Assembly (NCBI GenBank): GCA_951406725.2
Contig: OX597829.1
Location: 36,022,001-36,086,000 of the forward strand
DNA from: Octopus vulgaris
Lineage: Eukaryota
Length of the DNA: 64,000 nt
Reading direction: 5' to 3'
Part shown: piece after piece, positions 779 to 54,069 of the stretch
Layout: each line of letters begins with the position of its first letter
How positions within the stretch are numbered: the stretch's first letter is position 1
The notes under the pieces: model-generated
What the model was told of the DNA's origin: nothing
The model's input: only the letters and a program-made list of their open reading frames with translations
The model's database searches: none
Position numbers and translations under genes: made by a program

Positions 779-895
779 TTCGTACGCACATACTCACACA
801 CACAATAAATATGTGTATATATACAATAATAAGCAGACACAGACGTATACAGGCATGTGCATTAATATATATGTATATATATATGTATATATATA

Positions 896-968
<73 letters not shown>

Positions 969-1063
969 GTATTTATATATATATATGTATATATATATAC
1001 ATATATATATATAGACATATATATATATATACATATATACATATACATACATACATACATACA

Positions 1064-1130
<67 letters not shown>

Positions 1131-1154
1131 GCACGTATATAAATATGTATGTAT

Positions 1155-1718
<564 letters not shown>

Positions 1719-1731
1719 CATATATATATAC

Positions 1732-1785
<54 letters not shown>

Positions 1786-2112
1786 TCACATGCATACATA
1801 ACTATACATAAGAACAATATAAATATATTTATATGCGCATATGCATGTACGGATATCCATCCAACATTACATATGTATATGCATACATGAAAAAAATCTT
1901 CAGAATAATGACAATAATTACTGAACGGCCGAGTTTAACGCATGTAAATTAAGAAAAAAAAGGATATATAAACATGTATTGAGTTCTACTTCTATTTTTC
2001 CCGCCAAATAACTCTATCAATTTATATCTTGCTACCAATCGATGTACATAAATACATACACATGCACACACGTACATACATGCAGCACAGATGTTTTAAG
2101 ATTTAATATATC

Positions 2113-2520
2113 GGCGCAGGCGTAGCTCTGTGGTAAGTAGCTTGCTAACCAACCACATGGTTCCAATTTCAGTCCCACTGCGTGGCACCTTGGGCAAGTA
2201 TCTTCTACTATAGCCTGGGGCCGACCAAAGCCTTGTGAGTGGATTTGGTAGACGGAAACTGAAAGAAGCCCGTCGTATACACACACATATATATATATGT
2301 GTTTATATGTTGTGTGTGTGTGTGTGTGTGTATTCCAACATCGTTTGACACCGATGTTGGTGGGTTTACGTCCCTGTAACCCAGCGATTCGGCAAGAGAG
2401 AACTATAGAATAAGCACTAGGCTTACAAAGAATAAGTCGTGGGGTTGATTTGCTCGACTAAAGGCGGTGCTCCAGCATGGCTGCAGTCAAAATGACGGAA
2501 ACAAATAAAAGAATAAAAGA
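2113..2520 (+). mobile_element. tRNA-derived SINE family 1 (CORE-like), full length with internal microsatellite
   Basis: Head GGCGCAGG...TGTGGTAAG (A box), B-box remnant, CORE-like CACCTTGGGCAAGT, internal (TA)/(TG)n, tail GGTGCTCCAGCATGG...GAAACAAATAAAAGA. Many copies in the window. Confidence 0.85.
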
Positions 2521-2955
2521 ATATCAGCTTGAGGTTCGAGCCTCACTGCGTTGATTTTGCATTTCGAATTTTGAACAAATTTCTTAAACTTTGGGTAAGT
2601 ACAGTTCCTTTGAGTTAAATTGAGTAGACCGGAACTGCACAGAACCAATCGATCAATCGTGTCAGAAACTCCAGTGAGCAACTGTGTCACGTGTTTTGCC
2701 ATTCTGATTTCTCTTTCAGAACTAGAATTAGATTGACGCTACAAAATTTTGTGGAATACTCAGAATTTATGCTATAATTCGATGTGTAACAGGTCCAGTT
2801 TAAGAGATGTAGAATTAATTCTTTTTTCTCTTTTCATAGCCATACAGCTCAGTACAACGATGGCAATCTTACATACATATCTGTCCACATACACACGCAC
2901 ACACATATATATACATACATACATACATACATACATACACATATACACACACACA

Positions 2956-3035
<80 letters not shown>

Positions 3036-4636
3036 CCATATTTCCCGGAAAATAAGCTCTACCACGATTTTTCAGGATGTTTTTAATATAAACCCTACCC
3101 CGAAAATAAGACCTAGTTAAAAATGCATAATCTTGTTAACAAGACCATGTGACATTTGCAAAATAAACCAACTATCACAGCTTGGCTAAAGTCTGCGCTA
3201 AGCGCGCATGCACGGAGTTGACTCGCTTGGCTTGACACCCTTGTCCTTCAGGCAAGATAAATGCAAAAAGAAAGAGTTATTTCGTGGAGTACAAGAAAGA
3301 AATTGTGGAAGAGTCGCATAAGAATCTTACGGCATTCTGTAAGGGGGAGATATTGGATCTCCGAATGGTTCAAAAATGGCGAGCAGAGTACGATAATCTC
3401 AGCAGACAGGTGGATGAGGGAAGTGCTAAGAAGTGCAAGTGTGGATCAGGACGACAACCGTTATTTTCGGAAGATATCACTTCGGAATGGATTGCTGATA
3501 GAAGAACAAAGCATCACCTTGGTTGGATAACTTTCTTCGGCCATATGGACTCTCTCTAAGAAGATCGACAACACTGTTCAAGCTGGGGGATGCTGAAGTG
3601 ATTCAACGTGCACTTATATTCAAGTCCTTCGTTGATGGCATTGACTTTTCTAAATACAATCTCTCCAAAATAATTGCAATCGATGAGACTGTAGTATTTA
3701 TGGACCAAGGATCTAAATCGATAATTGAACAGACAGGTGCCTTGTCAATCTACGAAAGGGTAAGAGTTACGAAAGTGTAAGAGTTACTAGTATCTTAACA
3801 ATTCATCATGATGGAACAAAAGTCCCACCGCTTATTATCACAAAGGGCAAAAAAGAAAAAACAATGGGTTTCGAGCATTTATGTCCTTAAAGCGGAAAGG
3901 GCTAGTTGCACACAAGCTGTCATAATAAATTGGGTTGATTTAACTATACCACTTATTTTACGTTGGGATTCGGCCAGTACTCATCGTGCAAAAGATGTGC
4001 AAACCTTCTATCTGAAAGAAGAATTGATCACATAATGATTTCCGCAGGAATCACTTCATATCTTCAAGCGTTAGATCTTGTAATAAAGAAGCCCCTCAAG
4101 GATTATTTGCGGATGGAAGTGAATGAACATATCGAACATAGAATGGAGAGAAATCATAGTGGAAACTTTGTCAAAACTGACCTCCAAGAAGTCATGAATT
4201 GGGTGAAGAATGCATGGAATAAAATTACCGACAGTTGCGTTGCCAGTGTACTACGAGCAGGGTACTTGGACAAAAAGTGTTCATTTGAGGAAAGTTATAT
4301 TGCCAAACATCAGAGATGGAGGACCATGATCTACAAGAAATGGATTTGCAAGAAATTCGGTCTGAAGTTCGAGATTTGTTGATTTATGGCGATGTTCCAG
4401 AAGAGGACGAAATGTTTGTATTCAACTAAAAACAGCAAGCAAATAAATGAACTTTTGATAACAAAAGCATGAGTTTCCTTTATACATTTTTTCCTTTTAC
4501 CTGAGGACATAAGTCATTTTTGTCTTTCTTTGACTTTTTTCCTCAAAAATATAAAATATCCTCTGAAAATAAGCCCTAGTGCATTTTTAGATGCAAAATT
4601 ACTATAAGACCGGGTCTTATTTTCGGGGTAACATTT
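3036..4636 (+). mobile_element. Decayed pogo/Tigger-type (Tc1/mariner superfamily) DNA transposon
   Basis: Termini TA|CCATATTTCCCGGAAAATAAG and CTTATTTTCGGGGTAACATTT|TA form imperfect TIRs with TA flanks; subterminal GAAAATAAG repeats near 3102 and 4566; broken transposase inside. Confidence 0.85.
3261..4429 (+). pseudogene. Frameshifted DDE_1-type (pogo) transposase
   Basis: Fragments across frames: N-terminal HTH-like YKKEIVEE...MVQKWR, FLRPYGLSLRRSTT, and catalytic-motif remnants IAIDET, WDSASTH and TSYLQALDLVIKKPLKDYLR, plus WVKNAWNKI. Confidence 0.85.
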
Positions 4637-6084
4637 TACAACCGGTGTTCGCTTGTTTACCATAAATATCAGACTTAAAATATGTGTAAGTATTACGGTC
4701 TAAATTCTGTTCATCTAAACTCTTTAAAGTTAGTGCTCCAGCATGACCGCATTCCAGTGACTGAAGCAAGTAGAAGATTGATATAAATGTATGAATCTAC
4801 ATTTTTGTTTGTGTATGTATTATAATCTGTCAGTCAAATTTGACTCTGACCTGATAGCTACCAACAAAATATATAAACGAATAATAGAAAAAAAAGAAGA
4901 GGGAAAGTAGTCGAGGAAAAGATTGAAGATTACACACAAAGTTATTATGTTCGTCTATTGGGGATCACGGAAGACAATGACTTCAAACGTGCACCATCTC
5001 AACAGGAGATGAATCCATGCAGGGGCTGCTTCTGCTTATACTGTACATTCCGTGCATTTAAACCACGGAAGTGGTGGTATTTCATTCTCAAAGTTTGCCG
5101 TCCGTCACCCACCTACTTTCAGCCTGAAACTACGGAAGTAATAATATTTCATTGTTACAGATGTGCAGGATATACTAACAAGCAAAACAAAAGTATCATG
5201 TTCCATACAGTTTTACTCGCTTGAGACAGATGCCAGACTAGTGCAGGGTTCACATTTTAAAGCAATAAAGTATGGCTTGCACATCAGACACACGGTCACC
5301 TTTTCACACAATATGGCCAGCACCAAAAAATGTCAAGGCAACTAAGATGGTTTGAGGATGCAGTTGTCTAACGTTACTACCACAAGAAGTGTTCTGAATA
5401 ACATTTTCTATTTGTTCCAGATCACTTTTGCGCCATTTCGCCTAACTCAGAATTCGCTGCATTTTCATACAAACGTTGTTGTATTTACACGAATAAGGAA
5501 GTCATTATACGGCCGTATCTTTTCCCTCGGAGTGTCAGACATTGGAACTACCTTCTATCTCATTGTTTTTCCCACCTTTCATGACCTGAATTCTATGCCT
5601 AAAGTAAATTTATTCTGATGGTTTTAATTTCTCCTTCTTAATAGTCCCTTATACAAAGTGGTTTTTGCCTTGTTTGAGACTTAGAAAAAAAATTATTTTT
5701 TAACCTTACAGTACCACCAAATTTGATATGTGTTTGACACACAAAGCATCAGTTCAAATGTTTCCGTTGGATTATAGCATTTAACCAAGAATGATTGCAA
5801 TTGCCGCCCGTACCAGTAGCCCATGTTAGCCTGGAGATGTCAAATTCGAAGCCATAGAGATCAGGGTTATTTATTTCTTCCATACTTCATTTAATATGCT
5901 CATTATTGGAGTTCATTTACTTTTCGAGAACATTTTAATTTTAATTTTTTTATCTCGCAGTAAGAGTCATAATTTTCCACACCAAGTTAGCTTAATTGCC
6001 GATAACCCAATCATAAAAAGGGTTGTTTTCGATTGCATATTACTAACAACGCTCTTATGTGACATCTATCTCTCCGTCTATCTG

Positions 6085-6181
<97 letters not shown>

Positions 6182-12934: not shown

Positions 12935-14130
12935 TGTTTCTTTATTAGCCACACAGGGCTGCACACAGATAGAACAAATTACAAGGTAGAGCTTTTCTTT
13001 TGAAGGTTTAAAAAGTTAAAAAAATAAAAAATAAAAAAATAAAATAAAAAAGGGGGGTCGATCAAAAGGGATCGTAAAAGGAGAGAAAGAGGACAAAAAA
13101 AAGGGGGGGGGTTAAAAAAAAGGGGGAGAGGAAAAAAATTGATCAATAGGGATCGTTATCACAGAAATGTCAATATGAAGTGTAAAGGGGAGGACAGGTG
13201 AGGTTTACCCGTGGAAAGAAAAGCCTACGGAAAAGACCACGGTAACCTCGGTCAATGAAGTCACATGTTATATTTCTTTTTTTTTTTTTTTTTTTTGCAA
13301 ATAAGCAACTCTCTGTATTAATTTTTACGGTTCATAGAATCATAGTCAAGGTGGCTTCGTCATTCATACGTGCCATCCTTGCTACATTCACCCATCTTTT
13401 TTAAAAACATTCACTAGACAAAACTTGCCTCTCTACTCTCACTTTTTTCTTCAAGTGATACTTGAAGAAGTTGATGAGAGATTGACCAGAGAGGAAAGTG
13501 TTTGTCTCTAATCCTTTCAGACGCGTCCACCAGATACATTCTTTCGCCATAGCCACAAGTATGATAAAAATAGCTCTTCCTTCCCGTTTGAAGGAAGGAG
13601 GCGTGACGATATTAACGATAGACTCGGCTAATAAACCGACACGTCCCACACGTGACAGCAGTCGTTCGACATAAGCCCACAGGTGGGAAATTGCTGGACA
13701 CTGCACGATTGCGTGCAGAGCGGTTTCGTCGCTCTGCCCGCATCTCGGGCAGGTCGGCCCCGTGTTTCTCGAGCCATGCCTATAGAGCTTATCCCGAACG
13801 GGTAGCGCTTCTCGGTAGCACCGCCAGGCCAGGGATCTCTGGAAGTTGTCCATAGGTCCCGGGCCGAAAGTCGTTTGAAACAGGCGGGTCAGGTATTCCT
13901 CGTCGACGCCCAGGTTTGCCCCGAGCTCGTCGTCGTACCTCCCCTCCACTAATCCCCTATAGAATGCTTTGGTTGTGTTGAAGTCACTCAAGGTCGACCC
14001 GGGACGGCAGAGTTGCTTGAGAGCAACGCGACACTCGCGGTGCCATTCGCCCTTCTTCGGCCTCTTTTTGATCCACGACTGTAGTTCGGTCATGGAGACG
14101 AGTTGCGGGAATGCGTGCCTCACAAACGGC
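12935..14130 (-). mobile_element. 5'-truncated Tx1/L1-clade LINE (ORF2 C-terminus + 3'UTR) inside a (GATA)n tract
   Basis: ORF has a zf-RVT-like motif WRCYREALPVRDKL...CPRCGQSDETALHAIVQC...LW. A one-base homopolymer shift near 13401 would extend it to KKRWVNVA...IL* (stop 13332-13334). 3'UTR ends AATAAAGAAACA; (TATC)n on both sides. Confidence 0.85.
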
Positions 14131-14219
<89 letters not shown>

Positions 14220-14799
14220 CAGACAGATATATGAATGTCGCCCTTCGTGTATGTGTATGTGGATCAGCCCTGAGTGAGTTTTTAAAGTCTGCGCATTTCT
14301 GATATGGCGTAATTTATGAAGTAAATTGACTATCATTAAACTCCATAAATCTATGGCAAACCGAAAATGATTTGTGTCCACTCAGGGGTTAATGTTATCA
14401 ATGATTTTCTCCGACTAATCACACGCACGTACACAAGTAGGATCACATATAAAATTTTATGTATGTTTATGAGTAAACTGGAGATGTATGTGCGTATGAG
14501 TGTGTTTCCCGATGTTGCTTGACAATCGGTGTTTCTTTGTTCAAACCGTTATAATTCAATAGTTTGACAAAACGGGACGAATTCACGGAGTACCTACCAC
14601 TGTTTGATAACATTACTTCCAACACAGTAAGACGTAATTCAACATGGTCACAGTAGCACAGTCAAATAACTGAAATATGTATAAGAACAAAATGTGTGTG
14701 TGTGTGTCTGTATGTGTATCTGTGTGTGTATGTGTGTGAATGTGTGTGTGTGTTAATGTGTGTGATTGTGTGTGTGTGTGTTTGTGTGCCGATATATGT

Positions 14800-18855: not shown

Positions 18856-19520
<665 letters not shown>

Positions 19521-19860
19521 AAAGCAATAAAGATTCAAGTTAATTTAAATGAATTTACTTGAATATGGTACCTAACTTAGATGCACCAAAAAAAAAACTA
19601 TACTGATTTAACAATACAGTAATGTGGGGTGATTATAAGCGAGAATGAAGCAACAAGAATGGATAGGTTTTTAGTACAATCGTTTCATACAAGGACAGGT
19701 TTTATTAAAAGTTGCAAAAATTACAGCATATAAACGTGTCCCGTACTCATCAGCTAAAATACATGTGAGTTCTCTAGACATCCTACACCATTGGAAATTG
19801 TGCATCTATACAAAGGATTAATTCACCCTCTCTGTAATGCTAATAAGCAGGTCACATGTA

Positions 19861-19951
19861 TTTTAGCTGATGAGTACGGGACACGTTTATATGCTGTAAT
19901 TTTTGCAACTTTTAATAAAACCTGTCCTTGTATGAAACGATTGTACTAAAA
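19861..19951 (+). ncRNA. Type I hammerhead ribozyme motif (mirror copy on - at 19669-19759)
   Basis: Stem I TTTTAG/CTAAAA; CTGATGA at 19867-19873; stem II GTACGGGACA/TGTCCTTGTAT; GAAAC-GATT-GTA, predicting cleavage after 19945. Confidence 0.75.
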
Positions 19952-19955
19952 CTAT

Positions 19956-20020
<65 letters not shown>

Positions 20021-30974: not shown

Positions 30975-31020
30975 AACACAACGTTTCGGCTGATATACCC
31001 TCCAGCCTTCATCAGGTGTC
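30975..31020 (-). ncRNA. Minimal type I hammerhead ribozyme motif
   Basis: GACAC-CTGATGA-A-GGCTG(gagggtatat)CAGCC-GAAAC-GTT-GTGTT: stem I GACAC/GTGTT, 5-bp stem II, loopless palindromic stem III. Confidence 0.75.
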
Positions 31021-31110
31021 TTGGGGAAACTTCGAACCTGATGAAGGCTGGAGGGTATATGAGGACGAATATCCATCAAATATAAATAAAGTAAACAATG
31101 TATGTGTATG

Positions 31111-53878: not shown

Positions 53879-53930
<52 letters not shown>

Positions 53931-53955
53931 CAACAACAACAACAACAACAACGAC

Positions 53956-54031
<76 letters not shown>

Positions 54032-54069
54032 GTAATAATAATAATAGTAATAATAATAATAATAATAAT
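53868..54069. repeat. (TAA)n/(CAA)n compound microsatellite
   Basis: Direct reading. Confidence 0.95.

Follow-up and report, generated by a model that had tools for sequence, protein, structure and literature searches.

The window (the whole 64,000-nt stretch of Octopus vulgaris DNA that was analysed) carries at 19516-19959 an insertion without an ORF, which lies between TA repeats and contains two inverted arms, each with a hammerhead motif. Its features, in window coordinates, are as follows.

19428..19515: (TA)n target, left side, read from the sequence.
19511-19515: ambiguous left edge, which fits the element and the TA repeat alike.
19516..19959: whole insertion, a head-to-head 5'-truncated copy of a Penelope-like element (PLE) assigned by its motifs to the Hydra clade, without an ORF; its pieces map to the family 3' end.
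19516..19785, minus strand: left arm, element 3' end with hammerhead and long ("tail") end, 267 nt corresponding to reference 3731-3995.
19519..19633, minus strand: tail of ~113 nt, in one arm only (an arm ends at reference 3882 or 3995).
19669..19759, minus strand: type I hammerhead by descriptor match, core 19753-19747, predicted cut after 19675.
19778..19785: inversion junction, set by alignment limits; left arm and spacer piece overlap by 4 nt exactly (~8 nt imperfectly).
19782..19851, plus strand: 3' UTR piece from ~270 nt upstream of the right arm, reference 3406-3478, then 3748.
19852..19959, plus strand: right arm, element 3' end with short end, reference 3748-3857.
19861..19951, plus strand: type I hammerhead by core motif and fold, predicted cut after 19945; stem I 19861-19866/19946-19951, core 19867-19873, stem II domain 19874-19933, GAAA 19934-19937, stem III 19937-19944.
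19960..20015: (TA)n target, right side.

Local alignment of the arms (19659-19768 and 19852-19959) showed 108 of 110 columns to be identical, with no substitution and a single 2-nt gap, located in the right arm just outside stem I. The arms are separated by 83 nt, and (TA)n starts at 19960, adjoining the right arm. All of this reproduces what the initial annotation had described as an inverted repeat at 19659..19959. The arms of that description are exact but its extent is not, as the insertion reaches further left, to ~19516, where it is again flanked by (TA)n, and the 83-nt "spacer" is element sequence too. All three pieces of the insertion map to the 3' end of one family with 98-100% identity. 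The left arm differs from the family reference by one substitution and a poly-T length difference, and the 70-nt spacer piece is 100% identical to family copies. At the inversion junction, the left arm aligns up to 19785 and the spacer piece from 19782 (from 19778 with one gap). An internal deletion of ~270 nt lies at 19851/19852. The right arm, besides its 2-nt deletion outside stem I, ends 25 nt before the usual short end, at reference 3857, an end point shared by 1 of 99 other arms. Apart from small gaps, a single substitution in 441 nt separates the three pieces from the family copy L057, and on its account we consider the insertion young.

Each arm contains CUGAUGA, GAAA-C and GUA; its stem I has 6 bp and its stem II domain 60 nt, and both motifs show the CUGANGA, GAAA and NUH core and the stems I-III of a type I hammerhead. 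A strict type I descriptor run on both strands of the window gave two matches, which are the two arm motifs; 100 dinucleotide shuffles gave a mean of 0.01 and a maximum of 1 match. The intact hammerhead that the initial annotation had seen on each strand, with its core, 6-bp stem I and long stem II, is thus borne out by both descriptor and core motifs. A scan of the window with Rfam gave no match at gathering score, and the 16 weak matches (E up to 10) included no hammerhead family, with miRNA-like matches falling on the hairpin or the TA repeat. The long-stem-II hammerhead of this family is missed by Rfam, and descriptors that expect short helices would miss it too. Stem III of both motifs is only 2-3 bp long, and loop III is self-complementary with two G-U pairs (predicted duplex energy -5.8 kcal/mol). 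No second hammerhead copy was found on the same strand at the locus, leaving one motif per strand. We also considered a non-LTR retrozyme and rejected it: the head-to-tail tandem of such elements is absent, and the two motifs stand head to head.

Three further observations in this genome concern palindromes and hammerheads outside the insertion. About 90 nt to its left, at 18916-19431, lies a second near-perfect palindrome with ~255-nt arms, made of a 69-nt repeat end and a TA/GATA microsatellite. The 69-nt piece gave 334 first-look candidates and followed TA repeats in all four copies inspected, and one locus (L096) holds a long end and a 32-nt shorter end of it in inverted orientation; a further Penelope-type family likely has this piece as its tail. 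At 30975-31060, between TA repeats, the minus strand carries a minimal type I hammerhead (core 31015) with a 5-bp stem I, a bulged A, a G-C-closed stem II and a 2-bp stem III, accompanied by a truncated inverted hammerhead copy at 31038. This is another head-to-head stub, of a different family. Finally, a hammerhead-like motif that is unrelated and has a stem II domain of 56 nt lies at 660-750 of the plus strand of L077, just upstream of a sister-family element (see below), suggesting that several families of the genome have hammerheads with a long stem II.

The genome-wide search that had been proposed for copy number and parent element was carried out with an arm as the query. It returned 1094 first-look candidates from the 2.8-Gb genome, and the 40 that were scored gave 43 matches of 95-100% identity. 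The earlier description of the repeat as young was correct. The fetched copies continue into a reverse transcriptase frame, and parent copies were found with frames of 903-984 codons open at 9 of 20 RT-anchored loci. In L057, two hammerheads 4664 nt apart define a unit of that length with a 953-aa ORF, a 3' UTR of 1508 nt up to the hammerhead, and an ATG 55 nt beyond the tail end; in full-length copies the tail is the start of the 5' UTR. The family ORF is single, with the RT followed by a C-terminal GIY-YIG EN and with DKT in place of DKG. In the L057 protein, RWK is at 37, DKT at 124, YRDD at 355, CxCX5C at 814, VIY at 833, YIG at 848, CxxC at 911 and CxH at 941, and the linker is 30% Asn. 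CCHH is absent from L057, since its only CxxC is at 911 and not between VIY and YIG. These motifs are those by which section 11 of PMC8557442 defines the Hydra clade, for which canonical hammerheads and (TA)n targets are also reported there. In the 16 loci shown, outer ends are likewise followed by TA repeats, internal tandem pLTRs aside. We therefore assign the parent to the Hydra clade of Penelope-like elements, by motifs rather than by a tree. A feature search with the ORF gave the eukaryotic clusters HTH_animal/DUF8422/RVT_1 at 0.94-0.98; Pfam found no family for the 762-aa RT-EN frame, and a search of solved structures with the ORF gave no match. A Naiad/Chlamys PLE was considered and rejected: such elements have an N-terminal EN and lack a canonical hammerhead, whereas here the EN is C-terminal and a hammerhead is present.

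Several side observations concern the same family. It occurs at very high word depth in runs X10 and X17 from a second organism (organism B). On the minus strand of L057, the 212 nt from cut site to ATG are predicted to fold into long hairpins (~-49 kcal/mol), alike in both families, and a stem-loop lies just inside the long end. At L021, two truncated copies of 2.7 kb that stop at the same position make up a near-perfect palindrome of 5.3 kb (870-6160). In the window, 53913-54035 gives a 70% match to the DNA of the family's Asn-rich linker, which is probably no more than an AAT/AAC microsatellite. By eye, the window's 68 open frames of at least 120 codons are for the most part microsatellite frames and repeat fragments. 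Frames at 3939-4382 and 13401-14381 resemble, again by eye, pieces of a DDE-type transposase and of a LINE C-terminal zinc finger, respectively.

An outward-facing inverted pair was present at 40 of 50 fetched loci, which are the top BLAST matches rather than a random sample, and the junctions differ between loci. The other ten show one orientation within the fetched stretch; for L002, a longer stretch (L041) reveals the second arm. These counts bear on whether the locus was created by a fold-back of the assembly or of reads, as a near-perfect palindrome beside TA repeats might suggest. Among the matches listed, moreover, no public contig bridges the two locus-specific junctions, although these contigs come from other individuals that may lack the insertion. 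Two contigs of run X6 (taken as RNA only by guess) continue with family sequence instead of the junctions of 19516-19959 and are given no weight here. A fold-back artefact is nevertheless very unlikely, because the inverted pair recurs at 40/50 loci with different junctions. At this locus, in addition, the outer ends of the arms differ and match the two fixed ends of the family, and the centre is a displaced piece of the element with a deletion. In contigs from other DNA runs, TA adjoins the short end at 19634, and the same arms also occur with other fold-back joints. The insertion is real. It is ordinary in kind and adds a new family member to an already known clade.

The ends of the arms follow a simple pattern. 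Of the two main end points among 99 arms, reference 3882 accounts for 41 and reference 3995 for 45, and the remainder end within 25 nt of these positions. One long and one short end were found in all 38 inverted loci in which both outer ends are clear, a count that leaves out L060 (which has a third arm) and L069 (which runs off the fetched stretch); an independent 50:50 choice of ends would yield 38/38 with a probability of 0.5^38. The unequal ends also weigh against a MITE, a non-autonomous DNA transposon whose terminal inverted repeats would carry the hammerhead by chance. A short inverted repeat in TA at high copy number is what such an element would look like, but the arms have no uniform length, ranging from ~130 nt to >4 kb and leading straight to the RT ORF, and tandem pseudo-LTRs occur. 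We give this explanation next to no credence.

Measured from the hammerhead cut site, the two ends of the element are 36 and 154 nt downstream. Eight of the 20 RT-anchored loci extend 103-1204 nt upstream past the cut site and none of the 20 stops there. Because the ends lie beyond the cut site, which is crossed at these eight loci and is a stop point at none, the templates appear to have been either uncut or religated. As described in parts of PMC11167929, templates of another PLE are not cut at the hammerhead in vitro, two RT start sites bound the tail and both target strands are extended; circles were proposed in the relevant part of PMC4209133. We tentatively propose that two RTs, one per nicked strand, may always start at different sites on one RNA and copy through the cut site of the conserved long-stem-II hammerhead, as would be expected for an uncut or circularised template. 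This reading draws on the 38/38 count and on the close arm stops of 12 of 23 inverted loci (see below). If it is true, the family reveals the way in which Penelope inversions arise. Both PMC8557442 and PMC3846280 report inverted copies that are 5'-truncated and have a tail on one side, and opposite-strand hammerhead pairs 100-700 bp apart are reported in PMC4209133; a partial search of the PLE literature found no strict rule of one long and one short end with counts.

The same element could also have become inverted by self-priming, with one cDNA folding back on itself, as favoured in the passages of PMC3846280 that deal with inversion, there on an antisense template. This would change the mechanism only and leave the identification unaffected. 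In its favour, 12 of 23 inverted loci have paired arms whose stop points are no more than 11 nt apart. The arms of the 19516-19959 copy, on the other hand, have 5' stop points 320 nt apart, and the further-reaching arm is long-ended in some loci and short-ended in others. A short-ended cDNA that folds back, moreover, would have to return to the RNA in order to acquire the tail. We regard self-priming as the less likely mechanism. With two separately primed cDNAs, the likely sequence of events at the locus would be the following: the element protein would nick both strands of the TA repeat, reverse transcription would be primed twice, with one fixed site 36 nt and the other 154 nt downstream of the cut, and both cDNAs would stop early and be joined via an overlap of a few nt. 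The right end may have lost its 25 nt, and the 270-nt stretch may have been deleted, during or after insertion.

To what extent the hammerheads might act as ribozymes was judged from conservation and predicted folding. Compared with a sister family (L077), the 91-nt hammerhead is 92% identical and the 3' UTR 70%, and none of 32 UTR windows matches the identity level of the hammerhead. The sister family has the motif at 18 of 20 loci (19 motifs), with an unchanged core and a loop III that is a perfect palindrome in 19/19. Since the ORF, the tail and the 5' UTR are likewise conserved (85-95%), the hammerhead is not the only constrained part, though by sequence comparison it looks to be under selection in the family. 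Across 32 pairs in 11 aligned motifs, 94.6% of cells are paired, with one-sided changes in six pairs and two-sided changes in none; stem II has z = -2.0. According to parts of PMC4209133, a dimer-type PLE hammerhead did not cleave as a monomer and cleaved at a low level when dimeric, and according to PMC11167929, in the part concerned, the Anolis hammerhead cut only with protein. The hammerhead in the parent likely works weakly, either by dimerising at its palindromic stem III or with the help of protein.

The situation at the locus itself is different in its predicted fold. Both hammerheads face outward, so the antisense arm is transcribed first on either strand, and the initial annotation was right that read-through RNA of both strands would hold its own antisense copy. 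It had further proposed that cleavage would compete with hairpin formation and that the locus is the best candidate for an active ribozyme. A functional switch of this kind, in which a transcript of either strand cleaves in kinetic competition with the hairpin, would draw on the intact cores, on the motif being kept between families and on the isolated arm, in which stems I and II are predicted to cost only 1.0 kcal/mol. In the whole repeat, however, the predicted pairing probability of the ribozyme stems is 0.000 in both directions, and forming stems I and II in the whole insertion would cost 127.7 and 133.9 kcal/mol, a penalty of 128-134 kcal/mol against 5.6-6.5 kcal/mol in the parent. These values are equilibrium predictions that under-call the ribozyme, and because they place the probability of stem I near 0 in the parent as well, only the size of the contrast is used. 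A transcript that starts within the spacer would be free of the antisense arm, at a predicted cost of 7.0 kcal/mol for spacer plus right arm. The short stem III is nevertheless of the dimer type, there is no second same-strand copy at the locus, and a single minimal PLE hammerhead remained uncleaved in vitro in the experiments cited from PMC4209133. Intact cores are expected from youth alone, as 91 of 94 fetched family copies have them, and because these copies carry the same intact motif the locus is not special. We therefore consider such a switch highly improbable, and neither the proposed competition nor the ranking as best candidate is supported: the predicted trapping, together with the short palindromic stem III, makes the locus a poor candidate for an active ribozyme.

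Together, these results suggest that at this locus the 3' end of a young Hydra-clade PLE has been inserted head to head, and without a gene, in a TA microsatellite, and that the two hammerheads are standard for the family and predicted to be trapped, uncut, in a 108-bp hairpin (probability about 0.88). As such the locus is plain transposon debris, and any RNA to which it gives rise is likely double-stranded rather than cleaved. The family as a whole is young, with several open full-length ORFs and many near-identical insertions, and it offers good counts on how Penelope inverted repeats and tails form and on template cutting by the hammerhead.

The family can be compared with several known systems, each as described in the relevant parts of the papers cited. 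It resembles the Hydra clade (Craig et al. 2021, PMC8557442) in its single ORF with RT then GIY-YIG, in the motifs RWK, DKT, CxCX5C, CxxC and CxH and the lack of CCHH, as well as in the canonical hammerhead near the 3' end, the (TA)n targets, the partial tandems and the inverted 5'-truncated copies with a one-sided tail. In contrast to that clade, the unit here is 4664 nt rather than generally <3 kb, the tail is ~113 nt rather than 30-40, the stem II domain is 60 nt compared with loops of 4-10 nt in the eight Hydra-type rows compared, and there are a 1.5-kb 3' UTR and a linker with 30% Asn. The hammerheads share their topology, short stem III, palindromic loop and large helix II with the minimal and dimeric type I hammerheads of metazoan PLEs (Cervera and de la Pena 2014, PMC4209133), where opposite-strand pairs at 100-700 bp had already been reported. 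The predicted stem II here is much longer and closes with G-U, whereas G10.1-C11.1 is usual there. Non-LTR retrozymes (bioRxiv 10.64898/2026.07.22.740005) are similarly non-coding and PLE-derived with a type I hammerhead, but they are head-to-tail tandem units, while the locus is a single head-to-head stub with unique junctions. Penelope of Adineta vaga (PMC3846280) and PAc of Anolis (PMC11167929) have head-to-head inverted pLTRs, an optional one-sided tail, Asn-rich inserts, two RT start sites bounding the tail and templates uncut at the hammerhead, all as in the family here. These elements belong to the Penelope/Poseidon clade and have a pLTR that runs into the ORF. In the octopus family, by contrast, both ends precede the ATG, with ~113 nt between the two sites.
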